Source: Thermoanaerobaculia bacterium
GTDB taxonomy: Bacteria > Acidobacteriota > Thermoanaerobaculia > Multivoradales > UBA5704
NCBI GenBank assembly: GCA_044226625.1
Contig: JBGAGQ010000007.1
Span: 1-64,000, forward strand
DNA: 64,000 nucleotides
Direction: 5' to 3'
The notes under the pieces were generated by a model. That model did not search any database. It was not told the origin of the DNA and saw nothing but the letters and a program-made list of their open reading frames with translations. Both the position numbers and the translations under genes were made by a program. Shown here piece after piece: positions 14,901-41,362 of this stretch. How positions within the stretch are numbered: position 1 is the first letter of the stretch; every line of letters begins with the position of its first letter.

Positions 14901-17900
14901 CGACGACCGTCGAACCGGCATCGTCGGGAGCGTGATCGAGCGATCCCTCGATCGCGTCGAGGTCGATCACCCAGGCGGCATGCTCCGGCAGCTCGTCGAG
15001 CAGCGACGCCTCGCTGAGCAGGATCGGCACGCCCGCGTCGCGGATCATCAACGCGAGCCGGTCGGAGGGCAGGGTCGGATCGAGCGGCAGATACGCGCCC
15101 CCAGCGAGCCAGGTCGCGAGCATCGCCTCGACCAGGCGCGGCGAGCGCTCCAGGAACAGTCCCACCAACACCTCGGGGCCCACGCCCATGCCGCGCAGAT
15201 GCCGCGCGAGGCGCTCGCAGCGTTGCGCGAGCTCGCCGTAGGTCGTCCGCTCCTGCTCGAACAGGATCGCGAGCGCCTCCGGCCGTTCCTTCGCTTGCGC
15301 CAGGAACAGCTCGGCGATCGAACGTCCGGAGGACGGCGGCGAGGCGACGCGGGCCGAGCCCGAGAAGACGTCGAGCAACTCGTTGCGCTCGGCCGGCAGC
15401 AGCAGGTCGAGCGTCGACAGCGGCCGTTCGGGCTCGGCGGCCGCCCGCTCCAAGAGGAGGACGAGTCGCCGCGACAGCCGCTCGATCGTCGCCGGTTCGA
15501 ACAGCTCGACGTTGTAGCGAAGCTGGGCGTGGATGGGCTGGCTTTCGCCGCCGTCCACCGCCATCCAGGTCAGGTCGAACTTCGAGATCTCGAGCGCCTG
15601 AACGAGCGGCCGGATGACCAGGTTCGGCAGCGGCTCGACCCCGCCCGACGGCGGCGCGTCGACCACCAGGTGGACCTGGAAGATCGGCGAATGGGCACGG
15701 CTCCGGGTCGGCGAGAGGTCCTCGACGATCCGTTCGAACGGCACGTCCTGATGCGCGTAGGCGCCGAGCGTCGTGCCGCGCACGCGGCCGAGCAGCTCCG
15801 CGAACGACGGGTCGCCCGCGAGGTCGGTGCGCAACGCGAGCGTGTTGACGAAGAAGCCGATCAGCCCTTCGAGCTCGCGCCGGGTCCGGCCGGCGATCGG
15901 CGTGCCGACCACCACGTCCTCGACGTTCGCCACCCGGGCGAGCAGGGCGTCGAACGCGGCGAGCAGGGTCATGAAGATCGTCGTACCGCGCGCGCGGCCG
16001 AGCGCACGGAGCGCGTCGGCGAGCGCCGCCGGAACCTCGAAGCGGACCCGGCTGCCGTCGAACCTTTGCACGGCCGGTCGCGGCCGGTCGAGCGGCAGCT
16101 CGAGGAGCGGCGGCGCGCCCGCGAGCTTCTCGCGCCACCAGGCGAGCTGCTGGTCGAGCGCTTCGCCCTGGAGCCAGCCGCGCTGCCAGAGCGCGAAATC
16201 CGCGTACTGCACCGGAAGCTCGGGAAGCGGCGACGGCCGCCCGAGCGCGAGCGCCGGATACAGAGTGCCGATCTCGGCCAGGATCACGTCGTTCGACCAG
16301 CCGTCGGTCGCCAGGTGATGCATCGCGACCGTCATCCGCCAGGAGCGTTCCGCCATCCGCACCAGCACGGCGCGAGCGAGCGGCGCCTCGCCGAGGTGGA
16401 AGGGCCGATGCGCCACCTCGTAGGCAATCGCTTCGGCGCGCTCGATCCGAGCCTCGTCGGGCAAGTCGAGGAGGTCGACTTGCTCGAACGGGAAAGGCAT
16501 CGCGGGCTCGACCACCTGCACCGGTTTGCCCCCCTCGACCGCGAAGCGGGTGCGGAGCATCTCGTGCCGAGCGACGATCCCGTCGAGCGCGCCGCGCAGG
16601 GCGGCCACGTCGAGGTCGCCGTCGAGAGTCACCGACGACGAAACGTTGTACGCCGAAGTGCCCGGCTGCAGCTGTTCCAGGAACCAGAGCCGCTCCTGGG
16701 CGAACGACAGCGGCGAGGAGGCTCCGCGCGGCTGACGCTCGAGCGGCGGGACTTCGGCGAGGAGCGCGCCGCTCCCGCCGAGGATGTGCTCCATCCCCTC
16801 CTGCTCGATCGCTGCGGCGAGCCGGCCGAGCTCGGGCGCTTCGAACACGCGCCGCAGCGGCAGCTCGACGCCCAGCACCTCGCGGATCCGAGAGACCAAA
16901 CGCATCGCGAGCAGCGAATGTCCGCCGAGGTCGAAGAAGTGCGATTCGACCCCGACCGGCCGCCCCCCGAGCAACTCCTGCCAGATCCCCGCGAGCAGCT
17001 CTTCGATCGGGGTCCGCGGCGGCGTGATCGGCGTCTCGGCCGAGCCCGAGGCGACCGCGGAATCCGGCGCCGGAAGCGCCTTGCGATCGACCTTGCCGCT
17101 CGGCGTCAGCGGGAATCGTTCGAGCCGCGAGAACGACGACGGCAGCATCGGCTCCGGCAACCGGCCGCGCAGGAAATCGAGCAACGCCTCGCGCAACGTG
17201 GCGCCGCCGCCGAGCCCCGCGCCCGCGCGCTCGACCACGTACGCCGCGATCCGCTTGTCCTCCCCTTCGCCCACCAGCGTCGCCGCCGCCGCCGACACTC
17301 CCGGATGCTCCGCGAGCACCCGCTCGATCTCTTGCAACTCGATCCGGTGCCCTCGCACCTTCACCTGGTGGTCGATCCGGCCCAGCGCTTCGAGCCGCCC
17401 GTCAGCTCCGAATCGTGCGAGGTCCCCCGTCGCATACAGCCGCGCACCCGCCGCTTCCGCGAACGGATCCGGGAGGAAGCGCTCCGCCGTCAGATCCGGA
17501 CGCCCGTGATATCCGCGTGCCACGCCCGCGCCGCCGATCCACAGCTCCCCTGGAACCCCGCGGGGCACGAGATTGCCGCGCCCGTCCACCACGTGGACCG
17601 TGGTCGCCCGGATCGGCCGCCCGATCGTGATCGGTCCCTCGTCCACCCGGTCGAGCGTCGACCAGACCGCCGTCTCCGTCGGACCGTACATGTTCCACAG
17701 CTCGCCGACCTTCGGGCCCAGCTCCGCGGCCAGCGCGGGCGGCAGCGCCTCGCCGCCGACCAGCGCCTTGAGCTTCCCGTCGCCCGTCCAGCCCGAGGCG
17801 AGGAGCACCCGCCAACCCGAAGGCGTCGCCTGCAAAGCCGTGGCCCCGCTCGTCCGCAGCAGATCGGCGAGCAGCCGGCCGTCCGCGACCTCGTCGCGCC

Positions 17901-20900
17901 GGGCGATGACGATTCGAGCGCCGACCAGGAGCGGCGCGTAGAGCTCCAGCCCCGCGATGTCGAAGGAGAGCGACGTCGAGGCGATCCAGACGTCGGCCGG
18001 AACAACCCCCGGCCGCTCGATCATCGCCGCGAGGAAGTTCGCGAGCGCGCCGTGCGGCAGCTCGACGCCTTTCGGCCGGCCGGTCGAGCCCGAGGTGTAG
18101 ATCGTGTAGGCGAGGCCCGCCGGCAGCGTGCGCGGCGAAAGGCTGCCGCCAGCCTCCGGTCGGCCCTCCCCTTCGAGGGCGCCACCGGGTGCGAGGCGGA
18201 CGATCGAGGGGGCGAGCGTTTCGAGGGCGTTTCCGGAGCTGCCGGCGTCGACGATCAGCGCCGCGAGGCCCGCATCCGCCGCCATGTAGGCGAGGCGCTC
18301 GGCCGGGTAGCCCGGGTCGAGCGGCACATAGGAAGCGCCCGAGGCGAAGACGCCGAGCGCGGCGATGGGAAGGGAGGCCGAGCGCTCGACCGCGATGCCC
18401 ACCTTGGCCTCGCGCTCGATACCGAGCGCGATCAGCCGGCGCGCGAGCGCGTTCGAGCGAGCGAGAACCGTGGCGTAATCGAGCGTCGCCGCGCCGTCGA
18501 TGACCGCCGGTGCTTCCGGCGTGCGCAACGCTTGCGCCGCGAACAGCGACGGAACGGTTTGCTCGCTGCCGTCCTGAAGGCCCTCGGCGCCGCGACCCAA
18601 CGCCGACAACTCGGCGCGCTCCGACGCGGAGAGCAGCGGCAGATCGAAAAGCCGCGTTTCCGGCCGCTCCGCGGCGCCCGCGAGGAGGGTCGCGTAGCCG
18701 CGCGCGAGGCGCTCGATCGTCGCCGTCTCGAACAGGTCGGTCGCGTACTCCCAGCGGATCGAAAGCCCGTCCGCACCCAGCCGCAGGTAGAGCTGCAGGT
18801 CGACCAGGGCGGTCTCGGCCGAGACCGCGACCGGCGCGAGCGAGAGATCTCCCGACTCTCCCCCTTCGAACGGCGTGTTGACCAGGTTGAACATCAGCTG
18901 GAACAGGGGATTCCGCGACAGGTCGCGGCGCGGCGAAAGCTCTTCCACCAGACGCTCGAACGGCAGGTCCTGATGCGCATAGGCACCGAGGGCCGTCGCC
19001 TTCGCGCGGCCGACCATCTCGGCGAACGCCGGGTCGCCCGCGACCGAGGTGCGCAGGACGAGAGTGTTGACGAAGAACCCGATCAGCCCTTCGACGTCGG
19101 AGCGCGTCCGGTTCGCGACCGGCGTACCGAGCACCGAATCCCCCTCCCCAACGTAGCGCGCGACCAGCGCTTGGAAGCCGGCGAGCAGCACCATGAAGGT
19201 CGACGCCGAGCGAGCGCGGCCGAGCGCCTCGAGCGGCGCCAACCGCTCGGCGTCGATCGCGGTCTGGATCGTGCGGCCGCGATGGCTCGCGACGCTCGGC
19301 CGAGGCTTGTCGGTCGGCAGCTCCGAGGCGGGCAACGCCGCGAGCCGCTCCCGCCAGTAGGCGAGCTGGCGCTCCAGCTCTCCTCCCGCGAACCAGGCGC
19401 GCTGCTCGACCGCGAAATCGGCGTATTGGAGCGGCAGCGCCGGCAACGGCGAGGTCAGGCCACGACGCAATGCCCCGTAAACCCGCGCCACCTCACCGAA
19501 GAGCAGGCCCATCGACCATCCGTCGGAGACGATGTGGTGCATCGCGTAGACCAACGCGTGCTCGCGCGGTCCGAAGCGAACCAGCCAGGAACGGAGCAAC
19601 GGCGCCTTCTCGAGATCGAACGGCAGGGCGAACTGCGCCCGCGCGAGGCGCGTCAACTCTCCCTCTTCCCGAACCGAGGCCAGAGCCGAGAGATCGATCT
19701 CCGCGGTCCGGAGCTCGAGGTTCCGTTCGATCACCTGGACCGGCTCGCCGCCCACGTCTTCGAAGCGGGTTCGCAGCGTGTCGTGCCGTCGGCCGATCTC
19801 GCGCACCGCCTCGTAGAGGGCGGCGCGATCGAGAGGACCGGACAGGCGGACCGCGCCGCCGAGGTTGTAGAACGGATTGCCCGGCGCCAGTCGATCGAGC
19901 AACCAGAGGCGCGACTGGGCGAACGACAGCGGCGCGCGGTCGCGCCGCGCCCGCGGCATGAAAGCCTCGGGGGCCAGCTCGGTCGCGGAATCCCGCGAGG
20001 CCGCCGCGGGCGTTTCGGTTCGGCCGTCGATCGCCGCCGCGAGCGCGCCGAGCCTCGGCGCTTCGAACACACGGCGCAGCGGCAGCTCGACGCCCAGGTC
20101 CTCGCGAACCCGTGCGAGGAGCCGCATCGCGAGCAGCGAATGGCCGCCCAGCTCGAAGAAGTGCGACTCGACCGAGAAGGTCGGATGTCCCAACAACTCC
20201 CGCCAGAGCACGGCGAGCCGCAGTTCGGTCGGCGTGCTCGGCGCGGCACCCACCTGGTCGGCGGCTTGCGGGACGATCGCGGCGAGGGCCTTGCGGTCGA
20301 CCTTGCCGTTCGGCGTGAGCGGCAACTCGGCGAGCCGCACGAACGTCGAGGGGATGAAGCTCTCCGGCAACCGCGCCCCCAGGTGCGCCGCGAGCGATTC
20401 ACGCAGGGCCGCGCCTTCCCCGAGATCCGCCCCGGGCCGCGCGACGACATATCCCACCAGGCGCCGGTCCTCGCCGTCGCCCACCACGGCCGCCGCGGAC
20501 GCGAGGACGCCCGGCATCTCGGCGAGAGCGCTCTCGATCTCGCCCAGCTCGATCCGGTGCCCCCGAACCTTCACCTGATGATCCGTCCGGCCGAGGCACT
20601 CGAGCCGCCCGTCGGCAAGGAAGCGGCCCACGTCGCCCGTTCGATAGAGCCGCGCCCCCGGTTCTTTCGAGAACGGATCGGGAACGAATCGCTCGGCCGT
20701 CAGATCGGGGCGGCCGCGATACCCGCGCGCGACGCCGGTGCCGCCGATCCAGAGCTCTCCGACGAGGCCGCGCGGACGCGTCTCGCCGCTCGGATCGACA
20801 GCGTAGATCCGAGATCCGGGCAGCGGCCGGCCGATCGAGACCGGTCCCGGCCGCACCGGCTCAGCCGTAGACCAGACCGCGGTCTCGGTGGGGCCGTAGA

Positions 20901-23900
20901 GGTTCCACAGCTCTCCCACCTTGCTCCGTAGCTCGGCGGCGAGCGCGGGCGGCAGTGCCTCCCCGCCGACGAGGGCCTTCAAGCGGCGATCTCCGCTCCA
21001 TCCGGAAGCGAGCAGCACGCGCCAACCCGAGGGGGTGGCTTGGAGGATCGTCGCCTCTTGGCTCTCGAGCAGGTCCGCCAACAGCCGGCCGTCGGCGGTC
21101 GTCTCGCGCGAGGCGAGCACCGTCCGGGCGCCGACCAGGAGCGGCGCAAACAGCTCGAGCGCCGCGATGTCGAACGACAGCGAGGTGACCGCCACCCAGA
21201 CGTCGTCGGCGCCGGCCCCGGGCCGGTCGATCATCGCGGTCAGGAAGCTCGCCAGCGCGCCGTGAGATACCTCGACCCCCTTGGGCTTGCCGGTCGAGCC
21301 CGAAGTGTAGATCGTGTAAGCGAGGCTCTCGGACGACGGAGCCGGGAGCTCCCGCACCTTCGCCCCTTTGGCTCGGCCGACGATCTCGCCGCCCGCCGTC
21401 AGCTCGACCGCGACCCGGGCCGTCACCCCTCCGGCCGCGAGCGTCTCTTTGAGCTGCGTCCCCTCGACGATCAGCGCGGCGAGCCCGGCGTCTTCCGCCA
21501 TGTAGGCGAGGCGCCCGATCGGATAAGCGGGATCGAGCGGAACGTACGAGGCGCCGGAGGCGAGCACGCCCAGAACCGCCACGGGCAACGCCGCGGAGCG
21601 CTCGACCGCGATTCCCACTTTCGCCTCGGCACCCGCTTCCCCTCCGATCCCGAGCGCGACGAGGTGCGCCGCCAGGCGCTGCACCCGCGAGCCGAGCGTC
21701 GCGTAATCGAGCGTCTCGCCGCCGGCGACGACCGCCACGCGCTCCGGAGCTTGGCGGACCTGGGCGCGGAAGCGTTCGGGGACGCTCTGGGCGGAGGCCG
21801 TCACCTCGACGCCGGCGCCGACGCGCAACGTCTCGTCGCGTTCCGCCGGCGACAGGAGCGGTAGGTCGGAGAGGCGGACGGACGGCTCCTTGCCGGCCGC
21901 CTCGACCACGTTGCGGTAATGCCGGGACAACCGCTCGACGGTCGCCGGTTCGAACAGGTCCACCGCGTATTCCCAGCCGATTTCCACCCGGTCGGCCGCC
22001 TCGAACAGGTAGAGCTGCAGGTCGAACGGCGAAGCTCCCGAACGCAAGGCGAGGAGCCCGCCGAGACGGTCCTGACCGTCGCTCTCCTCCCCCATCGGCA
22101 GCAGGTTGAACATCAGCTGGAAGAGGGGGTTCCGCGACAGGTCGCGACGAGGGGAGAGCTCTTCGACCAGGCGCTCGAACGGCACGTCCTGATGCGAGAA
22201 GGCGTCGAGAACGAGATCTTTGGTCCGGTCGAAGATTTCATCGAACGACGGATCGCCCGCGAGGTCGGCACGCAACACCAGGTTGTTGACGAAGAAGCCG
22301 ATCAGCGACTCCTCGTCCGCGCGCGTCCGGCCCGCGATCGGCACGCCGATCACCAGATCGGTCTGGTTGGCGTAGCGCGAAACCAGAGCGTAGTAGGCGG
22401 CGAGCAGCGCCATGAACGGCGACCCTCCGCGGCCGCGCGCGTTCTTGGCGAGGGGTGCGAAAACGTCCGAGCCGAGCGTCGATCGGAAGGTGACGCCGCG
22501 ATGGCTCGGCGACGCGGGACGAGGGCGATCGACGGGGAGCTCCGTGATCGGCGCACCGCTCAGGCGGGCGCGCCAGAACGCGAGATGACGGTCGCCCTCG
22601 CCGCGCGCAAAGCGCTCGCGCTGGCGGGCCGCGACGTCGGAATAGCGGATCGGCAGAGGCGGCAAAGGCGAAGGGAGACCCGCCGCGAACGCCGGATAGA
22701 CCGCGAGCAGCTCGCGGCCGAACACGCCGAGCGACCAGCCGTCGGAGATGATGTGGTGGAAGCTGTAGACGAGCGCGGAATCGCGCGGGGCGAGGCGGAG
22801 CAGGACGAAACGGGCGAGCGGGGACCGCCCGAGATCGAACGATCGCCCGAGCTCCAACGCCGCCAACCGCCTGGCTTCCGCGTCGCGCCGGAACTGCGGC
22901 AGCCCTTCGAGCCGAACTTCCGGCAGCGGCACCGCGACCTCCGGAGCGACCACCATCCGCGGCCGGCCGTCGACCTCGCCGAAGCTCGCCCGCAGGGGCT
23001 CGTGCCGCCGCACCACCTCGGCCAGCGCCGAGCGAAGCGCGCGGACGTCGACCTCTTGGGTGAGCCGCTGCGCCGAGCCCAAGGTGTAGAACGAGTTGTC
23101 GGGAACCAGCCGGTCCAGCAGCCAGAGCCGTTCTTGGGCGAACGCCATCGGCCGCTCCTCCCCGACGGCGGCGGGGCCCCTCGAGGCGACGGCTTCGAGC
23201 GCGGGGCTCGGTCCGGCGAGCAGCCCGTCGACCTCCCGCGAGAGGGCGGCAACGGTCGGCGCTCCGAACAGGGCGTCGAGCGGCAGGTCGACCCGGCAGA
23301 CCTCGCGGACGCGCGAGACGACGCGGGTGGCGAGCAGCGAGTGGCCGCCGAGATCGAAGAAGTTGTCGTTCGCTCCGACCTCGGCGATCCCGAACAGATC
23401 GCCCCAGATCGCCGCGATCCGGCGCTCGCTCGCGGTCCGAGGAGCGACGTAGGCCGTGCTGAGCGCGGGCCTCGCGTGAGAGGCGATGACGTTCGCCGGC
23501 GAGATGCCGCTTCCGGTCGACCGAGGGGCGGCGATGTCGCCGACCGGAGCGGCCGCAATGGCTGTGACGGCGAGGCTCGCCGCGCGCGGTTCGAGGAAAT
23601 AGCGCTGGCGTTCGAACGGATACGTGGGCAGCTCGACCTTTCGCCGTCGCTCCCCCGCGTAATAGAGCCGCCAATCGATCTCGCCGCCCCGCACCCAGAG
23701 CTCGGCCACCGCGCGGGCGAGCCGTTCGGCGTCGGCGATGTCCTCTTTCGGGTGGCGTAGGCTCGCGATCGCGACGCCCGCGAGACCTCCTTCTCGACGG
23801 CGCGCGAGCGTCCCGAGCGAGTTGCCCGGACCGACCTCCAGATAGATCGCGTCCCCTTCCGCGGCGAGCGTCTCGAGCCCAGCGGCGAAGCGGACCGCAT

Positions 23901-26274
23901 GGCGAAGGTGAGCCGACCAGTAGGCCGGATCGGTCGCCTCGGCCGCGGTGATCCAAGCGCCCGTTCGATTGGAGACGAAGCGGCGCTCGGGAGCGCGCCG
24001 CGCGGCGTCCGCCACCGCCTTCTCGAACGGTTCGAGAATCGGCTCCATCGCGGCGGTATGGAACGCGTGCGAGGTATGGAGCAGGCGGCTCTCGAGCCCC
24101 TGCGGCAGTTGGCCGGCGATCGCGACGCGGAACCGTTCGACCTCGGCGGCGTCCCCCGCCACCACGACGCTCTCGCGCGCGTTCTCCGCCGCGACCTCGA
24201 GCGACGGAAACTCCGCGGCGAGGCGAGCCGCGACCCACGCCTCGTCGCGCGGCACCGCGAGCATCGCCCCCGCGGGCATCGACTGCATCAAGCGGCCGCG
24301 CAGAGCGACCAGACGGAGGGCGTCTTCGAACGAGAAGACTCCGGCGAGGTGGGCCGCGACGTACTCGCCGACGCTGTGCCCGATCATGCCCGCCGGCTCG
24401 ACTCCCCAGGAGATCCACAGGCGCGCGAGGGCGGTCTCCACCGCGAACAGCGCGACCTGCGTCCATTCCGTGCGCGCGAGGCGCCGTTCGGCCTCGGCCC
24501 GCTCTTCGCCCGTCCTTCCGCGCACGAACAGCACGTCGCGCAGATCGGCCCCGAGGGAGCCCCCTAGGATCTCGGCCGCGCGGTCGATCTCGGCGCGGAA
24601 CACCGGCTCGCGCTCGTAGAGATCCTCGCCCATGCCGAGGTATTGCGCCCCCTGACCGGGAAAGAGGAAATGGACGGGCCGCTCCGAGGCGAGCGCCGTC
24701 GGCGACGAGAAAGCTCCCGCCCCATCGAGGGCCGCGGCGAAGCCGCGCGCGGGATCGACGACCACGGCTCGCCGATGGCCGAACGTCCTCCGGCCGACCG
24801 CCGAGGTATAGGCGACATCGGCGAGCTCCGTTGCGGAGAGTTCGGATCGCGCGGCCCCGTTCGAAGCCAGATGCGCCTCCATCCGCTCGGTCGCCCGCTC
24901 GAGCGCGGCGGAGCTCTTGGCGGAAAGAACCACCACGGGGAACGCCCGCGACGGCCCAGAGGCCGGCGGCGGGGGCGCCTGCTCGAGGATCGCGTGGGCG
25001 TTGGTGCCCCCCATGCCGAACGAGGAGACGGCGGCCCGGCGCGGCTCGCCCGGCGCGACGGGGAACGGCTGAGGCTCGACGTTGACGAAGAAAGGCCCGG
25101 CCGCGAGGTCGATCTCCGGATTCGGCCGCTCGAAATGCAACGTCGGCGGCACCTCTCCCCGCTCGACCGCGAGCACCGCCTTGATCAGACCGGCCACGCC
25201 GGCCGCCGCGTTCAGATGGCCGATATTGCTCTTGACCGAGCCGAGCGCCGTGCTCCCCGGCCGGCCTCGGCCGAAGGTCTCGGCGAGCGCCGCCACCTCG
25301 ATCGGATCGCCCATCTGGGTGGCGGTGCCGTGTCCTTCGACGAATCCGATCGTCTCGGGCTCGACTTCGGCGACCAGTTGCGCGGCGCGGATCGTCTTGG
25401 CCTGGCCGGCGGCGCTCGGCGCCGTGTAGCCCAAGCGCGCGCCGCCGTCGTTCGTCACCGCCGAGCCCTTGATCACGGCGCGGATGCGATCGCCGTCGCG
25501 GATCGCGTCGTCCAGGCGTTTGAGCACGACGACGCCCAGACCGCTGCCGAAGATCGTCCCCGCCCCTTTCTCGTCGAACGAACGGCAGCGGCCGTCGCGC
25601 GAGAGGATGCCGCCCTCCGTCCACTCGTAACCGATCTCCTGCGGGAAGACGATCGACACGCCGCCCGCGAGCGCCGCGTCGCACTCGCCGTTCAGCAGGC
25701 TCTGCGCCGCCACGTGGACGGCGACGAGAGAGGTCGAGCAGGCGCTCTGCACCGCGAAGCTGGGCCCCGACAAGTCGAGCTTCCAGGACACCAGCGTCGG
25801 CAGATGGTCCTTGTCGGCGCCGAACAGTCCGCCGATCGCGCCGAGGTCGACTCCGCTCGGCAGGACGTTGCGGAAGAAGTAGGTGGAGACCGAGCAGCCG
25901 GCGAAGACGCCCACCGGCCGCGGATCGCGCGAGGAATCGAAGCCCGCGTCTTCGAGCGCCGCGTGGCAGGCCTCGAGGAACAGGCGGTGCTGCGGATCGA
26001 GGATCTCGGCCTCGCGCGGAGCGATGTCGAAGAAGCGGGCATCGAACAGGTCGGCGCCACCGATCTCGGCGGCCGCCTTGACCCAGCGTGAACCGTTCAC
26101 CACCGCCGGATCGGCACCACGGGCGATCAGCTCCTCGGCCGAGAGGTCGACGACCGAGGAGACCCCCGCGATCAGGTTCTGCCAGAAGGAGGCGACGTCG
26201 TCGGCTCCCGGAAAACGTCCCGCGAGCCCTACGACCGCCACTTCGAGGCCGGTCCTCGTGCCTTCTCCGCTCAT
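5956..26274 (-). CDS. Hybrid PKS-NRPS megasynthetase (6772 aa): KS-AT-T-C-A-T-C-A-T-C-A-T-ST-C-A-T-C-A-T
   Basis: KS with VQSACSTSL and EGHGTAT; AT with GHSVGE and HAFH (malonyl-type); five C domains (HHxxxDG, one HHSVSDD); five A domains (TSGSTGxPKG); six carrier motifs GG(H/N)S; sulfotransferase motifs PPRSGSTL and IRHPYG. ATGA overlaps on both sides. Confidence 0.97.
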   Translation of the reverse strand: MSGEGTRTGLEVAVVGLAGRFPGADDVASFWQNLIAGVSSVVDLSAEELIARGADPAVVNGSRWVKAAAEIGGADLFDARFFDIAPREAEILDPQHRLFLEACHAALEDAGFDSSRDPRPVGVFAGCSVSTYFFRNVLPSGVDLGAIGGLFGADKDHLPTLVSWKLDLSGPSFAVQSACSTSLVAVHVAAQSLLNGECDAALAGGVSIVFPQEIGYEWTEGGILSRDGRCRSFDEKGAGTIFGSGLGVVVLKRLDDAIRDGDRIRAVIKGSAVTNDGGARLGYTAPSAAGQAKTIRAAQLVAEVEPETIGFVEGHGTATQMGDPIEVAALAETFGRGRPGSTALGSVKSNIGHLNAAAGVAGLIKAVLAVERGEVPPTLHFERPNPEIDLAAGPFFVNVEPQPFPVAPGEPRRAAVSSFGMGGTNAHAILEQAPPPPASGPSRAFPVVVLSAKSSAALERATERMEAHLASNGAARSELSATELADVAYTSAVGRRTFGHRRAVVVDPARGFAAALDGAGAFSSPTALASERPVHFLFPGQGAQYLGMGEDLYEREPVFRAEIDRAAEILGGSLGADLRDVLFVRGRTGEERAEAERRLARTEWTQVALFAVETALARLWISWGVEPAGMIGHSVGEYVAAHLAGVFSFEDALRLVALRGRLMQSMPAGAMLAVPRDEAWVAARLAAEFPSLEVAAENARESVVVAGDAAEVERFRVAIAGQLPQGLESRLLHTSHAFHTAAMEPILEPFEKAVADAARRAPERRFVSNRTGAWITAAEATDPAYWSAHLRHAVRFAAGLETLAAEGDAIYLEVGPGNSLGTLARRREGGLAGVAIASLRHPKEDIADAERLARAVAELWVRGGEIDWRLYYAGERRRKVELPTYPFERQRYFLEPRAASLAVTAIAAAPVGDIAAPRSTGSGISPANVIASHARPALSTAYVAPRTASERRIAAIWGDLFGIAEVGANDNFFDLGGHSLLATRVVSRVREVCRVDLPLDALFGAPTVAALSREVDGLLAGPSPALEAVASRGPAAVGEERPMAFAQERLWLLDRLVPDNSFYTLGSAQRLTQEVDVRALRSALAEVVRRHEPLRASFGEVDGRPRMVVAPEVAVPLPEVRLEGLPQFRRDAEARRLAALELGRSFDLGRSPLARFVLLRLAPRDSALVYSFHHIISDGWSLGVFGRELLAVYPAFAAGLPSPLPPLPIRYSDVAARQRERFARGEGDRHLAFWRARLSGAPITELPVDRPRPASPSHRGVTFRSTLGSDVFAPLAKNARGRGGSPFMALLAAYYALVSRYANQTDLVIGVPIAGRTRADEESLIGFFVNNLVLRADLAGDPSFDEIFDRTKDLVLDAFSHQDVPFERLVEELSPRRDLSRNPLFQLMFNLLPMGEESDGQDRLGGLLALRSGASPFDLQLYLFEAADRVEIGWEYAVDLFEPATVERLSRHYRNVVEAAGKEPSVRLSDLPLLSPAERDETLRVGAGVEVTASAQSVPERFRAQVRQAPERVAVVAGGETLDYATLGSRVQRLAAHLVALGIGGEAGAEAKVGIAVERSAALPVAVLGVLASGASYVPLDPAYPIGRLAYMAEDAGLAALIVEGTQLKETLAAGGVTARVAVELTAGGEIVGRAKGAKVRELPAPSSESLAYTIYTSGSTGKPKGVEVSHGALASFLTAMIDRPGAGADDVWVAVTSLSFDIAALELFAPLLVGARTVLASRETTADGRLLADLLESQEATILQATPSGWRVLLASGWSGDRRLKALVGGEALPPALAAELRSKVGELWNLYGPTETAVWSTAEPVRPGPVSIGRPLPGSRIYAVDPSGETRPRGLVGELWIGGTGVARGYRGRPDLTAERFVPDPFSKEPGARLYRTGDVGRFLADGRLECLGRTDHQVKVRGHRIELGEIESALAEMPGVLASAAAVVGDGEDRRLVGYVVARPGADLGEGAALRESLAAHLGARLPESFIPSTFVRLAELPLTPNGKVDRKALAAIVPQAADQVGAAPSTPTELRLAVLWRELLGHPTFSVESHFFELGGHSLLAMRLLARVREDLGVELPLRRVFEAPRLGALAAAIDGRTETPAAASRDSATELAPEAFMPRARRDRAPLSFAQSRLWLLDRLAPGNPFYNLGGAVRLSGPLDRAALYEAVREIGRRHDTLRTRFEDVGGEPVQVIERNLELRTAEIDLSALASVREEGELTRLARAQFALPFDLEKAPLLRSWLVRFGPREHALVYAMHHIVSDGWSMGLLFGEVARVYGALRRGLTSPLPALPLQYADFAVEQRAWFAGGELERQLAYWRERLAALPASELPTDKPRPSVASHRGRTIQTAIDAERLAPLEALGRARSASTFMVLLAGFQALVARYVGEGDSVLGTPVANRTRSDVEGLIGFFVNTLVLRTSVAGDPAFAEMVGRAKATALGAYAHQDLPFERLVEELSPRRDLSRNPLFQLMFNLVNTPFEGGESGDLSLAPVAVSAETALVDLQLYLRLGADGLSIRWEYATDLFETATIERLARGYATLLAGAAERPETRLFDLPLLSASERAELSALGRGAEGLQDGSEQTVPSLFAAQALRTPEAPAVIDGAATLDYATVLARSNALARRLIALGIEREAKVGIAVERSASLPIAALGVFASGASYVPLDPGYPAERLAYMAADAGLAALIVDAGSSGNALETLAPSIVRLAPGGALEGEGRPEAGGSLSPRTLPAGLAYTIYTSGSTGRPKGVELPHGALANFLAAMIERPGVVPADVWIASTSLSFDIAGLELYAPLLVGARIVIARRDEVADGRLLADLLRTSGATALQATPSGWRVLLASGWTGDGKLKALVGGEALPPALAAELGPKVGELWNMYGPTETAVWSTLDRVDEGPITIGRPIRATTVHVVDGRGNLVPRGVPGELWIGGAGVARGYHGRPDLTAERFLPDPFAEAAGARLYATGDLARFGADGRLEALGRIDHQVKVRGHRIELQEIERVLAEHPGVSAAAATLVGEGEDKRIAAYVVERAGAGLGGGATLREALLDFLRGRLPEPMLPSSFSRLERFPLTPSGKVDRKALPAPDSAVASGSAETPITPPRTPIEELLAGIWQELLGGRPVGVESHFFDLGGHSLLAMRLVSRIREVLGVELPLRRVFEAPELGRLAAAIEQEGMEHILGGSGALLAEVPPLERQPRGASSPLSFAQERLWFLEQLQPGTSAYNVSSSVTLDGDLDVAALRGALDGIVARHEMLRTRFAVEGGKPVQVVEPAMPFPFEQVDLLDLPDEARIERAEAIAYEVAHRPFHLGEAPLARAVLVRMAERSWRMTVAMHHLATDGWSNDVILAEIGTLYPALALGRPSPLPELPVQYADFALWQRGWLQGEALDQQLAWWREKLAGAPPLLELPLDRPRPAVQRFDGSRVRFEVPAALADALRALGRARGTTIFMTLLAAFDALLARVANVEDVVVGTPIAGRTRRELEGLIGFFVNTLALRTDLAGDPSFAELLGRVRGTTLGAYAHQDVPFERIVEDLSPTRSRAHSPIFQVHLVVDAPPSGGVEPLPNLVIRPLVQALEISKFDLTWMAVDGGESQPIHAQLRYNVELFEPATIERLSRRLVLLLERAAAEPERPLSTLDLLLPAERNELLDVFSGSARVASPPSSGRSIAELFLAQAKERPEALAILFEQERTTYGELAQRCERLARHLRGMGVGPEVLVGLFLERSPRLVEAMLATWLAGGAYLPLDPTLPSDRLALMIRDAGVPILLSEASLLDELPEHAAWVIDLDAIEGSLDHAPDDAGSTVVEPDQLAYVIYTSGSTGKPKGVAVTHRGLENLAREQGRMFEVLPGSGPEPRLLQFASSGFDASVSEIAVALANGAALVMAAKASILPGFELYTLLRDKAISNVTLPPSALAALPVDKALPALRSLVVAGEACPVDLAETWCAGRKVVNAYGPTENTVCIAMHAFVPGSGRLPLGAPIPGVDAYVLDARGSLAPIGTPGELAVGGIALARGYLGAPDLTAERFVPHPFGSVPGARLYRTGDLVRWSSHGDLEFLGRIDTQVKVRGFRIELGEIERALLGHGEVLEAVVVARAEGGTEKRLVAYVVPREGSGGPLEAAELRAFLGRTLPEYMIPSAIAILAALPKNASGKVDRRALPDPREAGAAEREIAAPRNALESFLVGLFAETLHVDAVGIDENFFELGGNSIAGAMLVNRLQEELGEIVHVVVMFEAPTVEGLAAYLTEHYPAALARRFGVEAGGSATRVGPIDEAKIARFNALVPVRRPARLAADRKNPAAAFVLSPPRSGSTLFRVMLAGHPLLFAPPELELLPYDDLRERRDDFPGRYNHFLEGAVRAVMELDRSTAEEAEAKLDAWEQEGISMAEVFARLQESAAPRLLVDKTPGYSLHPSILERAEQMFDGARYIHLIRHPYGMIRSFEEAKLDQVFFRAEHDFSRRELAELIWLVSHRNILAFFEGIPAERKHAVVFEELLAEPERVLRGVCSFLGLDYQPEMAAPYQASEQKKSARMTDGLHSWSRMLGDVKFHTHGRVEQSVADRWKTEITEDFLGEPTRDMAETLGFARREVGWVPLGPSGWREGEELPLSYAQERLWFLARLEPESPAYNIPTALRLRGRLSVPALTAALDELVARHAALRTRFGDRDGHPVQIVEPARPVALRRLDLGRIEGEMCEAELSRLALSEALRPFDLVRGPLLRAALVRLAGEDHAVLFAMHHIASDGWSSGILAREVGALYAATLEGRPSGLAPLPVQYADYAVWQRAWLAGPTLQGQLGWWREMLAPASRGGSLPPALELPTDRPRSSVTSKRGATRFYSVPAERLNGLDRLAQEEGATPFLLFLAAFGAVLSRASGQTDFAIGTMVANRTRAQIEGLIGVFMNTLALRLDHSGDPSFRELVRRAKGLTLGAFAHQEVPFEKVVGEIQPDRDLGGSPLFSVMLLLQNAPAGALALPGLTLERVDYEKTTSKLDLTLTLFQGTAGLMAQYEFDVDLFDPATMLRLGARFAELLERVSSEPDRPLSSLPAGTPVEMQQTLVEWNDRPAPYDPRVCLHQMVEAQVDRTPQALAVIALGADGREPVEMTYAELEERSNRLANRLIRFGVRRGDRVAIVAERSLDLIVAILGTQKAGAGYVPLDPSYPAERVAYLFEDSKAAAVVAQARFVGSLPESSHPIVQIDADPELGDESASRPDVGSAPNDLAYVIYTSGSTGKPKGVLIPHRAIANRVGWQLWAHPFAPGERLLQKTPTSFDASVWELFAPLAVGGVLVFAQPDGHRDAAYMARAIADHRVGTLQLVPSMLAAFVEEPDLSRCTDLRRVFAGGEALPTALGRRLAERLDIPLHNLYGPTETAIDVASRPRVAEVAGRTISPIGRPLPNLKLLLLDRERRPVALGQPAELCIGGVNLAWGYLGRPDLTAEKFVPDPIAEAGGNPELGFGPGARLYRTGDLARFLADGEIEYLGRIDSQVKIRGFRIELGEIESRLREHPLVAHAAVVARSVEEGGERRLVAYLVPVPGTDPEDLAPRELKAFLAAELPEHMVPGDFVSLAALPTLPNGKLDLAALPAPSAAGIAALPAVEIAVAKTPVEEILTTIWAQVLGLESVSVTDSFFDLGGHSLLALQVTSRARAAFGVPVKVRTLFEAPTVEQLARRIEAARAAGSEPLPALELAPRDRPLPLSFAQERLWFLDRLLPGSPVYNLPIFLRFVGGLRIPALGGALVEIVRRHEALRTTFVEAGERPAQRIAPAEEAARIARIHLADLAALPEERRRPEAERLADREGRRAFDLSTGPLVRATLVRLAEGDHVGLFNLHHSVSDDWSSGILVRELVALYTAARSGRPNPLPPLSIQYADYAAWQRAWLDGPALEKRLGFWTRALAGAPLALDLPSDRPRPPAQTFRGGNLGWRVAPETESAVRSFARGASASPFMVLFSAFATLLGRLAGVEDVLVGSPVAGRSRPEIEGLIGFFINTLVLRSRPRSGATFAEIVNEARGTLLDAVAEQDLPFEKLVGELNPERDPSRPPIFSVNFSFQNAAMGRLELPGVEIEPWKGGSGTAKTDLALFLSDQGVGMTGAFVYSSDLFDRATIGRFAGHLENLLAAALADPARPLAELPLLAAAERTEIVSNWSHFDGADHAPAAPRTLAGLFEDSAERYGELAAMVAGEREMSYAQLEARANQLAHHLRAFGVGPDVAVGVFCDPSFELGIALLGIAKAGGVYVPLDPQLPLERLTHLIEDAGLAIVLTQEHLQESLPAMPIFAIALDGGGWDLVATQPESRPEPALDEPAALDTLAYLIFTSGSTGTPKGVGVTHRGVANLGTELARLTGLEPGDRLLQFASIGFDASISEIVEAWGAGAALVFAGREQRMPGAGLARLFVEQRITLATLPPSALAALPELPEGVPAALIVAGEACPPDLAERWRQGRRFVDAYGPTETTVCATALLYEGGRLTIGRPIATFATYVVDRGGEAQPLGVPGELLLGGPSLARGYLGRPDLTAERFVPDPFSGEPGARLYRTGDLARWTAVPRDAASHESRELEFLGRIDHQVKIRGYRIELGEIETVLGTQAGVQEAAVIARPAAEGDLRLTAYVVATEARPDPVQLKEILRGKLPEYMVPAIIAVLDDFPRTAAGKVDRRALAAIDPSKIAGERPYVAPQTDVEKVLADIWCEVLDRDRIGIDEDFFDIGGHSLLATKVVARVQKVFRIDLELRDFFAATTIEAAARALIAKEKQPGLTARTAKLLRQIQEMSAEERQTLLAGAPAHEGAEDA
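12570..13430 (-). other. Embedded PAPS-dependent sulfotransferase domain (CurM/OLS-like) between T and C
   Basis: VLSPPRSGSTLFRVMLAGHP..FAPPEL (5'-PSB loop), LLVDKTP, YIHLIRHPYGMIRS (3'-PB), FEELLAEPERVLRGVCSFLGL. Confidence 0.9.
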
Positions 26275-29200
26275 CGCTGCTCCCCATCCGTTGAGCCGGC
26301 CTGACCGGCCGCCTGCCTACGTTCAAGCCGCATCCGCCGGCGGTCCTTGCCCGCTTCGATCACGTCCGCCCGCGCCTCGACCGACGCCACGTCCGAGGCC
26401 GCCCCACCGTCCAGGAAACGCGCGAGCGACGCCACGTCGGGGTGACGGAACAGGTCGATCACCGCGATTTCCCGGCCGAGCCGTTCGGCCAGCCGACCGT
26501 GGGCTCGCACCAGGAGGAGCGAGTGCCCTCCCAGGGCGAAGAACTTGTCGTGACGGCCGACCCTCTCGAGGCCGAGCACCTCGCGCCAGACCTCGGCGAT
26601 CGCCTGTTCGGTCGGCGTCCGCGCCGCCACGTATTCGGCCGACGCCGTCGCCGTCGCGCGCGGCTCGGGCAGAGCCCGGCGATCGATCTTGCCGTTGGGC
26701 GTGAGCGGCAGACGTTCGAGCGCCATCCAGAGCGAGGGCACCATGTACTCGGGCAGCCGGGAACGCAGCAGCTGACCGAGCTCCTCTCCCGAGGGCTCCG
26801 CGGCTCCCGGCGCCGTCACGAAATAGGCGACCAGCCGCTTCGCTCCCGAGGCGTCCGGCCGCGCCACGACGACCGCCTCGCGCACGCCGGGATGGCGCGC
26901 GAGGGCCGCCTCGATCTCGCCCGGCTCGATGCGGAAACCGCGAATCTTCACCTGCGCGTCGGCGCGCGCGACGAACTCCACCTCGCCGTCCAGCCGATAC
27001 CGGCCGAGGTCTCCGGTGCGATACATCCGATCGCTCGCGGCGACCGCCCCCGGCGCCGCCACGAACCGCTGACGGGTGAGCTCCGGGTCGCCCAGGTAGC
27101 CGGCCGACAGATGAGGGCTCCGCACCGCGATCTCGCCCACCTCGCCGAAACCCGCTGGACGCCCCTCGGCGTCGAGCACCAGGAGCTGCACGTCCTTCAT
27201 CCCGCGGCCGAGCGGCAGGATCTCGCGCCGGGCGGCCGCGGGACCGTTCGCCCCGGCGCCGTCGCTCCGCTCCTTCCCATGCTCGACCACGTGATAGGCC
27301 ACGGCGCGCTGGGTTTCGGTCGAGCCGTAGAGGTTGACGCAGGTGAGATTCGGCGCCAACCGTTCGAGCCGGGCCACGTCGAGGCGGGTGAGCGCGTCGC
27401 CGACCAACAGAGCGCGGCGCAGCGAGGGCACCGAGACCGTCGTGCCACGCGACGCCATCAGCTCGGCCGATTCGGCGATCAGCTGTCCCATCGCGGGGGT
27501 GAGGTGGGCGACCGAGACGCCGCGCTCGGCCATCCAGGCGGCCAACCGCCCCGGGGTCGCGATGTCGGAAGGATCGGGCACCGCGATCGTCGCGCCCAGG
27601 CTGAGCGGGGTGAACAGATCGCGCTGCAGCGGATCGTGCGCGAGGCCGGAGAGCAGGCTGAAGACGTCGTCCTCGCCGAGCGCGAGCTCCGCGCACTGCC
27701 AGGGCAGGAAATGCGAGAGCGGTCCGTGCCGGCCGACGATCCCCTTCGGTTGCCCGGTCGAGCCCGAGGTGAACGCGACGAGCGCCGGGTCGTCGGGCCC
27801 CAGCTCGACCGGTGCCAGCGGCGAGCCGGCCACCGCCACCAGGGCGGCCAACGTCGAAGCGGCCCCTCCGACCGGCAGGTCGATTCGGATCGCGTCGGCG
27901 CGCGCGAGCCAGGCTTCGATCTCGGCCGGCAGCGGGCCCGCGGCCTCGAGCCGGATGAATCCGCGCGGGGCGGCCAGATCGAGCATCGCGAGGATCCGCT
28001 CGGCCGGATAGGCCGGATCCAGCATCGCGAACGCGCCTCCCGCTTCGAGCGTGCCGAGGACCGCCGCGGCCAAGGGAGCGCTCCGATGGGCCCAGACCGC
28101 CACCCGTTCTCCGCGCTCGATCCCTCGGCGACCGTCCTCCGGCTGGCGGAGGCGCGAAGCGATCCTCGCGGCGGCTTCGGCCAGCTCGCCGTAGCTCCAG
28201 GCGCCCGCCCGGTCGACCACGGCGAGGCGCTCCGGCCGGCGGTCGGCCTGCCGGCGAAACAGCGAATCGATCGAGCCGTGCCAGGTCGAGTCGAGCGCCT
28301 CTCTCGGATCCGGGAGCACCGCGTCGGCCGCGGCCGTGCGCAGCCGGATCTCGGAGATCGGCCGGTCGGGCGCGGCGAGCGCCTGAACGGTCACGCCCTC
28401 GATTTGCTCGAGGAGGTCGCGCATCCGCTCGGGGCGGAAGAGGTCGGCGTTGTAGACCAGGTGCAGCGAAAGGCCGTCGGGGACTTCCGCGGCGTAGATC
28501 GTGAGGTCGAATTTCGATTCGACCTCCGGCACCGAGATCGGCTCGATCGAGAGCCCCTCGAACCTCACCTCGGCGCGGGGCAGGTTCAACATGTTCAGCA
28601 GGACTTGGAAGATCGGCGTGCGCGACAGGTCGCGCTCGACGTCCAACTCCGAGAGCAGCCGTTCGAACGGCACGTCCTGGTTGGCGTAGGCCGCGAGCGC
28701 GGTGTCGCGCGACCGGCTCACCAGCTCGCGGAAGCTCGGGCGCCCCGAAAGATCGGCGCGCAGGGCGAGGGAATTGAGGAAGAAGCCGATCAACCCTTCG
28801 AGCTCGGGGCGGCCGCGACCCGCGATCGGGCTGCCCACCGCGAAGTCCTCCTGCCCCGACTGACGGCCGAGCACCAGGGAGAAAATCGCGAGCAGCACCA
28901 TGTAGGGGGACGCGCTCATCGTCCGCGCGAATTCCGCGAGCTTCGCGGCGAGCGGTTGCGGCAGGACCTTGAGCTCGCTGCCGCCCCGGAACGTCTGAAT
29001 CGCCGGCCGCGCGAAGTCGGTCGGCAGCTCCAGCGCCGGCACGCTGCCGAGCCGCTTGCGCCAGTACGCGAGCTGCTCCGCGAACGTATCGTTCGCCCCG
29101 AGCCGCTCGCGCTGCCAGACGGCGAAGTCGGCGTACTGGATCGCGAGCTCCGGCAAGGGGGCGAAGGCGCCGCCGCGCGCCGCGGCCATCCGCGGATAGA

Positions 29201-29804
29201 GGGCCGACAGCTCGCCGATCAGAACTCCCATCGACCAGCCGTCGGTGACGATGTGATGGACGTTCAGGAGCAGGGCATGCTCCTCGGGGCCGCGACGGAT
29301 CAGGATGATCGAGAGGAGCGGACCGCGCGAGAGGTCGAAGGAGCGCTTCGTGTCCTCGGCGGCGAGCCGGCGCAGCTCCCCGTCCCAGCGCTCCGAGGAA
29401 AGACCGCCGAGGTCGACGAGCGGTTGGGCGAGCGTCCGCTCTCCCGGGGGGTCGATCACCTGACGGGGGACGCCGCCTCGCTCGACGAAGCGGGTCCGCA
29501 GCGACTCATGCCGGCGCGCGATCTCCGTGAAGCAGCGGGCGAGCACGGTGCGATCGAGAAGACCGCGGAGCCGTACCGAGACCGGAATGTCGAGCGTCGA
29601 GGTGCCGGGCGACATCCGGTCGATGACCCAGAGGCGCTCCTGCGACCACGACAGCGGGGCCTCCAGGGCGAGGTCGGCGGCACGCCGAGGGATCGCCGTG
29701 CTCTCGGCCAGCTCCACCCCCTCCTCGGCGAGCAGGAGGGCGAGCAACTCCCGGTCCTCCGGCGAAAGCCCGGCGGCGTTGCCCAATTCGTCGATGCTGC
29801 TCAT
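26271..29804 (-). CDS. Single-module NRPS C-A-T with a Lys2/aminoadipate-reductase-like A domain
   Basis: Start set at ATG 29804 (AAGGAG upstream). C motif HHIVTDG; A motifs SGLAHDPLQRDLFTPL, HLTPAMGQL, NLYGSTETQRAV; T motif FFALGGHSL. Confidence 0.93.
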   Translation of the reverse strand: MSSIDELGNAAGLSPEDRELLALLLAEEGVELAESTAIPRRAADLALEAPLSWSQERLWVIDRMSPGTSTLDIPVSVRLRGLLDRTVLARCFTEIARRHESLRTRFVERGGVPRQVIDPPGERTLAQPLVDLGGLSSERWDGELRRLAAEDTKRSFDLSRGPLLSIILIRRGPEEHALLLNVHHIVTDGWSMGVLIGELSALYPRMAAARGGAFAPLPELAIQYADFAVWQRERLGANDTFAEQLAYWRKRLGSVPALELPTDFARPAIQTFRGGSELKVLPQPLAAKLAEFARTMSASPYMVLLAIFSLVLGRQSGQEDFAVGSPIAGRGRPELEGLIGFFLNSLALRADLSGRPSFRELVSRSRDTALAAYANQDVPFERLLSELDVERDLSRTPIFQVLLNMLNLPRAEVRFEGLSIEPISVPEVESKFDLTIYAAEVPDGLSLHLVYNADLFRPERMRDLLEQIEGVTVQALAAPDRPISEIRLRTAAADAVLPDPREALDSTWHGSIDSLFRRQADRRPERLAVVDRAGAWSYGELAEAAARIASRLRQPEDGRRGIERGERVAVWAHRSAPLAAAVLGTLEAGGAFAMLDPAYPAERILAMLDLAAPRGFIRLEAAGPLPAEIEAWLARADAIRIDLPVGGAASTLAALVAVAGSPLAPVELGPDDPALVAFTSGSTGQPKGIVGRHGPLSHFLPWQCAELALGEDDVFSLLSGLAHDPLQRDLFTPLSLGATIAVPDPSDIATPGRLAAWMAERGVSVAHLTPAMGQLIAESAELMASRGTTVSVPSLRRALLVGDALTRLDVARLERLAPNLTCVNLYGSTETQRAVAYHVVEHGKERSDGAGANGPAAARREILPLGRGMKDVQLLVLDAEGRPAGFGEVGEIAVRSPHLSAGYLGDPELTRQRFVAAPGAVAASDRMYRTGDLGRYRLDGEVEFVARADAQVKIRGFRIEPGEIEAALARHPGVREAVVVARPDASGAKRLVAYFVTAPGAAEPSGEELGQLLRSRLPEYMVPSLWMALERLPLTPNGKIDRRALPEPRATATASAEYVAARTPTEQAIAEVWREVLGLERVGRHDKFFALGGHSLLLVRAHGRLAERLGREIAVIDLFRHPDVASLARFLDGGAASDVASVEARADVIEAGKDRRRMRLERRQAAGQAGSTDGEQR

Positions 29805-41070: not shown

Positions 41071-41362
41071 GGGCAAGGAACCTCCGTGCGATGGACGGTG
41101 CACGAACGGGAACGGCACGCTTCCGCTTCCGGCATCAAACCAACCTTACGATGCGTTGCGCCTGAGAAGACGTGCCTGAATAGCCAACGGCGGAGACTGG
41201 ACGGACGCCGCCTGCGCTTCGAACATAACGGCTCCGGACGAGCGAAGCAACTTGCAGCGGCGGGGAGCAGATTTCGCGCGACCGCCCGTTCGGCCGCTCA
41301 GCCTCCGGCCGAAAGCTCACGGTCGATCGGGCGAGCCCCGCCCCCCGGATCTCCGCGAGTAC

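Follow-up and report, generated by a model that had tools for sequence, protein, structure and literature searches.

Fungal Lys2 activates the δ-carboxyl of α-aminoadipate, and D-Glu in microcystin and nodularin is linked via its γ-carboxyl. In ordinary adenylation (A) domains, D235 and K517 anchor the α-amino and α-carboxyl groups. The present analysis concerns gene 1 of a mixed nonribosomal peptide synthetase and polyketide synthase (hybrid NRPS–PKS) locus of a Thermoanaerobaculia bacterium, located in a stretch of 64,000 nucleotides (assembly GCA_044226625.1, contig JBGAGQ010000007.1, positions 1 to 64,000 of the forward strand; hereafter, the window). Gene 1 encodes an NRPS subunit with a condensation (C), an A and a thiolation (T) domain. 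As judged from its relatives, the A domain is an uncharacterised member of the Lys2-related A domains of distal-carboxyl type, and belongs to a large and widespread clade. Activation of an acidic amino acid at its distal carboxyl is considered the best reading of this domain, held with confidence a little above even.

Among hybrid NRPS–PKS systems, the zeamine and fabclavine lines open with a domain of similar code. The first A domain of Zmn16 (A1), with the code DPRHLALLAK, is predicted in an excerpt of PMC3547906 to load 2-aminoadipic acid, and prezeamine begins with a side-chain-linked ('gamma') aspartate according to an excerpt of PMC5811116. Two A domains tethering Asp via its side-chain carboxyl are mentioned in an excerpt of PMC13126170. 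The A domain of gene 1, whose specificity code is DPRHLVLRAK, has eight of its ten code letters in common with Zmn16 A1, and gene 1 likewise provides the first module of a hybrid NRPS–PKS line. Gene 1, its domains and the motifs that hold the code are found at the following positions of the window:

26271..29804, minus strand: gene 1, NRPS subunit of C-A-T order, 1177 residues (translation and Pfam)
28323..29663, minus strand: condensation domain of gene 1, residues 48-494, with the HHIVTDG motif intact (Pfam)
26685..28259, minus strand: Lys2-like A domain, residues 516-1040, comprising AMP-binding (516-904) and AMP-binding_C (963-1039) (Pfam)
27603..27650, minus strand: motif SGLAHDPLQRDLFTPL, with code positions 235 D, 236 P and 239 R (translation)
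27480..27512, minus strand: motif VAHLTPAMGQL, with code position 278 H (translation)
27390..27413, minus strand: motif ALLVGDAL, with code positions 299 L and 301 V (translation)
27300..27335, minus strand: motif NLYGSTETQRAV, with code positions 322 L, 330 R and 331 A (translation)
26412..26606, minus strand: thiolation (carrier) domain of gene 1, PP-binding residues 1067-1131, with the GGHS serine motif (Pfam)

Gene 1 starts at an ATG at 29804 with AAGGAG upstream, and at its other end the stop codon and the ATG of gene 2 overlap (ATGA). The initial annotation had placed the A domain at 26690-28270, which agrees with the Pfam-based span of 26685-28259, and had read from it four peptide strings and the code DPRHLVLRAK. 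All four strings are present, encoded on the minus strand, which had been left unstated, and the code was reproduced from the MAFFT alignments by which positions 235-517 were assigned. The mapping of motifs to these positions follows what we take to be the GrsA numbering convention. The plus-strand frame opposite gene 1 contains none of the four motif strings and resembles an Arg/Gly-rich antisense sequence; long open frames occur on both strands because the G+C content is 70-72% across the first 32 kb of the window. Past window position 40000, the G+C content drops from about 0.71 to 0.60-0.68. The core motifs of the A domain (FTSGSTGQPKG, YRTGDLGRY and PNGKIDR) are intact and, together with the three domains and the catalytic motifs HHIVTDG and GGHS, make gene 1 a complete NRPS C-A-T module. 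No thioester reductase domain was detected in gene 1 by Pfam, only 46 residues being left beyond the T domain.

In all comparisons, Lys2 was represented by the model TIGR03443 (L-aminoadipate-semialdehyde dehydrogenase, Lys2). Gene 1 matched this model with E = 6.8e-183 and 610.2 bits, and its five sibling C-A units in the window reached 156.6-238.1 bits, whereas the generic A-domain model TIGR01733 gave 399.0-446.0 bits for the siblings and 365.0 for gene 1. The score of gene 1 lies below the curated cut-off of TIGR03443 (1030.1 bits), and the match covers model positions 2-753 of 1390. With the A domain of gene 1 alone, TIGR03443 was the best NCBIfam match at 461.6 bits. It was also the top family for three of four other clade members tested (494.3 bits for a second domain of the host genome on contig C67, 469.1 for locus L018 and 412.7 for locus L046), the fourth, L079, reaching only 304.7 bits.

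The host genome (6.6 Mb, 97.9% complete) carries an unusually large NRPS/PKS load, with 74 A domains and at least eight hybrid ketosynthase (KS) domains spread over many contigs. Among its 118 matches to TIGR03443, the C67 domain scored 589.6 bits and the A domain of gene 1 scored 530.5, the next one being at 262.8. Using the latter as query, the genome returned the domain itself at 1125.6 bits, the C67 domain at 541.9 and the next at 233.1. The Lys2-like type is thus represented by two of the 74 A domains, and both of these modules feed a KS. The C67 domain (C67:21292-22836, minus strand; code DPRHFVYRSK) belongs to the last module of a 4497-residue NRPS, and the gene that follows encodes a KS, an acyltransferase (AT), a ketoreductase (KR), a dehydratase (DH), a T and a C domain, in this order.

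Phylogeny gave the same picture. Trees were built from bacterial sequences, with no fungal Lys2, ACVS or SulI sequence among them. In a FastTree phylogeny of 151 A domains, comprising 79 Lys2-like ones and the 72 remaining A domains of the host genome, a branch with support 99 separated these two groups. A quick IQ-TREE run with 56 rows (LG+C20 PMSF) grouped 13 Lys2-like rows with support 100, and joined them, at support 99, with zeamine-type and DVRHFALLAK-type domains in a set of 27 rows that excludes the 24 ordinary A domains. An A-domain phylogeny including Lys2 and ACVS had been proposed in the initial annotation; in the trees run here, which hold neither, the domain does not cluster with ordinary A domains (support 99-100). 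The Lys2 resemblance claimed there is therefore borne out both by the TIGR03443 score of gene 1 against those of its siblings and by the separate clade, and the A domain of gene 1 is, by profile and tree, specifically Lys2-like rather than ordinary.

Comparison with fungal Lys2 itself shows both likeness and difference. The A domain of gene 1 falls in the same sequence subfamily by its TIGR03443 score, and the match of the model extends into the C-terminal half of the C domain. With respect to what we take to be the Lys2 code, the pocket of gene 1 differs at two hydrophobic positions only. Unlike Lys2, gene 1 has no thioester reductase and is a C-A-T module from which a PKS receives the load; moreover, no LysW, nor any LAT or homocitrate synthase above cut-off, was found in its bacterial host. 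The strings HDPIQRD, HLTPAMGQL and TETQRAV, ascribed to Lys2 in the initial annotation, gave no literature match as text. The best 120 database homologues of the domain were all bacterial. No close relative of the A domain was found among solved structures, and the ESM Atlas returned generic AMP-binding clusters only, which were uninformative.

Two better-studied proteins were tried as models and rejected. NF004282 was the top whole-protein match of gene 1 (687.3 bits) and suggested module 2 of PvdL (pyoverdine), a C-A-T module after a lipid-loading step and similar in this respect, yet the sibling units score 705.5-830.2 bits with the same model, and the solved PvdL A domain reaches only about 178 bits against the A domain of gene 1. 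LgrA appeared as a near solved relative at 391 bits, a value reached by adding up three stretches (62.7 + 120.0 + 203.0).

The Lys2-like type is not rare. One genome per species was scanned, and relatives were found in 597 of the 600 stretches listed, hence at least 597. Hosts among these listed stretches include Acidobacteriota (many of them Thermoanaerobaculia), Gemmatimonadota, Chloroflexota, cyanobacteria, Streptomyces (S. venezuelae ATCC 10712 among them), Nonomuraea and Pseudomonas. The best 120 homologous proteins, each read at the A domain that matches best, carry D-P-R at positions 235/236/239 in 113 cases and the exact code DPRHLVLRAK in 16. In the 80 loci kept for counts of code and context, D235, P236 and R239 are invariant (80/80). 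At position 278, His (60 loci) predominates over Asn (17) and other residues (three), and position 330 is occupied by either Arg (55) or Gln (25). Arg239, His/Asn278 and Arg/Gln330 together form a basic pocket suited to a carboxylate. Since positions 299, 301, 322 and 330 differ across the clade, more than one substrate is likely among its members. The clade appears to be the nearest bacterial kin of fungal Lys2, as far as the profile comparisons tell.

Regarding context, the Lys2-like module stands behind an upstream module in 61 of the 80 loci, and the next domain is a C domain in 55, a KS in seven and nothing seen in 18; such modules thus mostly serve internal positions of peptides. Coupling to a KS was considered as a trait of the clade and rejected, since a KS comes next in only 7/80 loci and the KS-followed rows are scattered on the FastTree phylogeny (nine of 79 rows, including gene 1 and C67, with at least six changes). 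Loci L077-L079, from Pseudomonas spp. (code DPRHFGFQAK), encode a stand-alone A-T with about 350 further residues without Pfam family and no C domain; these may be the bacterial sequences which, according to an excerpt of Bushley and Turgeon (2010), were placed beside fungal aminoadipate reductases.

Outside the gene 1 clade, DPRH and related codes were followed through two scans, a pattern scan for zeamine-type and DVRH-type domains and a second one for McyE-type domains. The zeamine-type domains lie in the same 27-row superclade as gene 1, but form a separate sister clade. Their TIGR03443 scores are 225.1-264.8 bits for the three tested, and TIGR03443 is not the top family for these nor for two DVRH-type domains (232.1 and 282.6 bits), the generic A-domain model being preferred. 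In addition, position 330 is L in the zeamine type and not R as in gene 1. A Xenorhabdus locus carries the codes DPRHVSLLAK, DTWTIASVGK and DATKVGEVGK, matching the published order, and starts with A-T; in contrast to gene 1, this homologue has no C domain in front. The DVRHFALLAK domains (e.g. L107, L137 and L163) represent a third A-domain type within the 27-row superclade, very common and found in many phyla. In the Nostocales loci L099, L104, L134, L144, L152, L165 and L174, this code is paired with DPWATGCIDK, whereas Nostocales proteins P0027, P0038, P0074 and others pair DPWATGCIDK with DPRHF[AG]FQAK, followed by a thioesterase; these code pairs may point to a small conserved peptide in which two residues are unusual and of acid type.

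The initial annotation had compared gene 1 with McyE on account of a DPRH-type code. This code was indeed found, as DPRHSGVVGK, in 12 cyanobacterial loci among the 80 read, out of 89 stretches that matched; Microcystis, Planktothrix and Nostoc are among the hosts, and the tail of the Planktothrix locus is methyltransferase–aminotransferase–C-A-T-C, as expected of McyE. McyE and NdaA share with gene 1 the first four code letters and a hybrid PKS–NRPS setting, but not close kinship. They score only 142-163 bits against the A domain of gene 1, no more than A domains in general, and sit on a long branch outside the 27-row superclade, and their PKS part lies upstream of the A domain, whereas in the gene 1 line it lies downstream. 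The comparison thus stands for the shared letters and fails for the lineage. DPRH letters occur in at least three lineages, of which that of gene 1 is the nearest to Lys2.

The C domain in front of the Lys2-like A domains is also distinctive. In the C-domain tree, 66/66 C domains located directly upstream of Lys2-like A domains fell in a 68-row set (with two others) at support 100, apart from the 63 other C domains of the host genome and from 45 of the 47 C domains downstream of Lys2-like modules. The C domain of gene 1 falls in this clade, most of whose members are in elongation positions, while being itself the N-terminus of the first subunit; the tree contained no known starter C sequence. 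Its best solved relatives are the elongation-type domains Txo2, Txo1 and TycC6, and the PvdL C domain scores about 137 bits. A dedicated clade of C domains fits an unusual geometry of the acceptor.

The remainder of the assembly line lies downstream of gene 1, with the following features:

5956..26274, minus strand: gene 2, hybrid subunit of 6772 residues, with KS-AT-T, three C-A-T modules, a sulfotransferase and two further C-A-T modules (Pfam)
25129..26244, minus strand: ketosynthase of gene 2, residues 11-382, with SACSTS (Cys), HGTAT and NIGH present (Pfam and motifs)
23827..24669, minus strand: acyltransferase of gene 2, residues 536-816, with GHSVG and HAFH (Pfam and motifs)
23236..23421, minus strand: carrier domain of the PKS module, gene 2 residues 952-1013 (Pfam)
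2..5959, minus strand: gene 3, NRPS of C-A-T-C-A order, ended by the contig start; its ATG overlaps the stop of gene 2

The opening of gene 2 is a minimal non-reducing type I PKS module, with the Cys-His-His residues of the KS, the GHSxG motif of the AT and a carrier. No KR, DH, enoylreductase (ER) or methyltransferase was matched in gene 2 by Pfam at E <= 1e-5, and the gap between AT and T, of about 136 residues, is too short for a KR. A KS-AT without KR directly after the Lys2-like module, as first described from the open reading frames, was thereby confirmed by Pfam and intact motifs. The HAFH motif of the AT is presumably of malonyl type. The A codes of gene 2 are, in order, DILQLGLVWK, DILQLGMVWK, DASTVAAVCK, DAWQFGLIDK and DASTIAAVCK, the first of which we take to be of Gly type.

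Another genome of the same genus, G001, holds the intact cluster on contig C118, at about 153.3-206.0 kb. Its gene 1 is 83% identical and its gene 2 has the same order, gene 3 consists of two modules, and gene 4 has six modules ending in a thioesterase. From this layout, the line is colinear and comprises four genes, with 14 amino-acid modules plus one PKS module, and its first subunit is that of gene 1. There is no NRPS gene upstream of gene 1 in the window or in G001: a divergent DnaE-like polymerase gene and two hybrid histidine kinases lie upstream in the former and type I restriction-modification genes in the latter, where no tailoring or supply gene adjoins the cluster. The residue had been described as part of an isopeptide linker; this role was not upheld, since this is the opening module of the line and a C domain stands at its start, so that the residue would rather be a head group, possibly N-acylated.

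In the proposed scheme, the A domain of gene 1 would adenylate Glu, α-aminoadipate or Asp at the side-chain carboxyl and load it onto the T domain, the free α-carboxylate being held by R239, H278 and R330. The KS of gene 2 would then condense the thioester with malonyl-S-T supplied by the AT. Since the PKS module of gene 2 lacks a KR, a β-keto acyl chain would pass to the next C domain, which would add a Gly-type residue. The product predicted from this scheme has an acid residue linked by its side chain to CH2-CO-Gly, and a sulfated Tyr at a later position. The N-terminal C domain of gene 1 may N-acylate the α-amine of the head residue, or may be kept as the obligatory partner of this type of A domain.

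Regarding the identity of the acidic amino acid, the near-identity of the pocket with the presumed Lys2 code points to aminoadipate, but the gene content of the host argues against this substrate. LysW was not detected in the host genome, the best match to LAT has 157.7 bits with a cut-off of 520.8, and the best match to homocitrate synthase has 183.2 with a cut-off of 413.55. For the saccharopine route, one weak Sacchrp_dh_C match (37.3 bits) was found. Neither LAT nor LysW was detected in any of the eight genomes of the genus. Because these supply genes for aminoadipate were not found, and none flanks the G001 cluster, Glu or Asp would be favoured.

Activation through the distal carboxyl is preferred on account of the basic pocket, the kinship with Lys2 and the sister-clade starter with its side-chain-linked Asp. 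Several points weigh against it. The connection with Lys2 chemistry is, from the sequences, one of homology only. The zeamine type is no closer than a sister clade, IQ-TREE leaving the branching order among the three subclades open, and code letters alone define no lineage, since the McyE-type DPRH domains are not kin. No product or assay was found in the literature for any clade member. Finally, D235 (80/80 clade loci) and K517 (77/80) are conserved, which also fits activation at the α-carboxyl. This conservation keeps alive a rival that we regard as rather unlikely, in which the acidic substrate (Glu, aminoadipate or Asp) undergoes activation at the α-carboxyl, the Arg/His/Arg pocket only recognising the side-chain carboxylate, and the KS builds a normal γ-amino-β-keto unit. 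The 61 of 80 loci in ordinary elongation positions, the 55 of 80 followed by a normal C domain, and the literature without an assay are in line with it, whereas the closest characterised kin by profile is Lys2 and the sister clade holds the zeamine-type starter, whose Asp is side-chain-linked in the product. Furthermore, a dedicated C-domain clade is not obviously needed for an ordinary acceptor, and ordinary Glu/Gln-type codes (DAWQFGLIDK and DAKDLGVVDK) are found elsewhere in the host genome.

It is improbable that the substrate lies outside Glu, aminoadipate and Asp, for instance a diaminopimelate, a β- or γ-amino acid or a dicarboxylic acid, even though the pocket is identical to that of no assayed domain, the usual supply routes of aminoadipate were not found in the genus, and the clade varies at the four positions mentioned above. 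An invariant D-P-R, combined with H or N at position 278, is shared with known activators of the distal carboxyl of acidic amino acids (zeamine A1 and the McyE code), and with a C domain in front, the loaded unit must offer an amine nucleophile. The codes of Lys2 and ACVS follow the same pattern. That the module of gene 1 is inactive or skipped, the KS being primed otherwise, is hardly credible. A KS-first paralogue of gene 2 on contig C98 does lack an adjoining loading gene, but the core motifs of the A, C and T domains of gene 1 are intact, and the gene is translationally coupled to gene 2 and full length, with 74-83% identity, in five same-genus genomes (G001, G002, G003, G005 and G006). 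A sixth, G007, has a partial gene 1 match of 83% with a TAG stop.

Beyond this locus, a broader and tentative proposal, about which we have more doubt than trust, is that the pair of a C and a Lys2-like A domain is an ancient self-contained bacterial unit, present in at least eight phyla, that installs ω-linked acidic residues, aminoadipate included, as a common unrecognised building block. Fungal Lys2 would descend from such a unit, its N-terminal region being the remnant of the C partner that the A domain needs; if so, this need would also explain why a C domain is kept at the line start in gene 1. With this clade, there is a definite bacterial candidate from which fungal Lys2 could originate. 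At stake is whether side-chain-linked acidic residues are a routine peptide feature in little-studied phyla, and a single assayed member would settle what hundreds of orphan clusters do chemically. At present, A-domain predictors label such domains 'aad' from their likeness to Lys2, the zeamine prediction in the excerpt of PMC3547906 being an example.

Some further features of the locus and its host are recorded here. A Sulfotransfer_3 domain (gene 2 residues about 4287-4499; 12778-13416, minus strand) is inserted in line, separating the T domain of a Tyr-type module (DASTVAAVCK) from the C domain that follows. Two further copies of this insert are present in the host genome, after another Tyr-type module on contig C98 and after a Thr-type module on contig C28, which suggests on-line O-sulfation of hydroxyl residues. 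The gene 2 paralogue of contig C98 (KS-AT-T, three C-A-T modules, sulfotransferase, C and onwards) runs from about 3.7 kb, with no loading gene adjoining and a divergent MacB/FtsX-type permease upstream. The last C domain of gene 2 (residues 5680-6121; motif at about 8810-8830, minus strand) has HHSVSDD in place of HHxxxDG. Of the two hybrid histidine kinases upstream of gene 1, one lies at 33764-35473, and the other (35383-41118, minus strand; 1911 residues) combines nine HAMP and eight HAMP_2 stretches with one GAF domain and three receivers.

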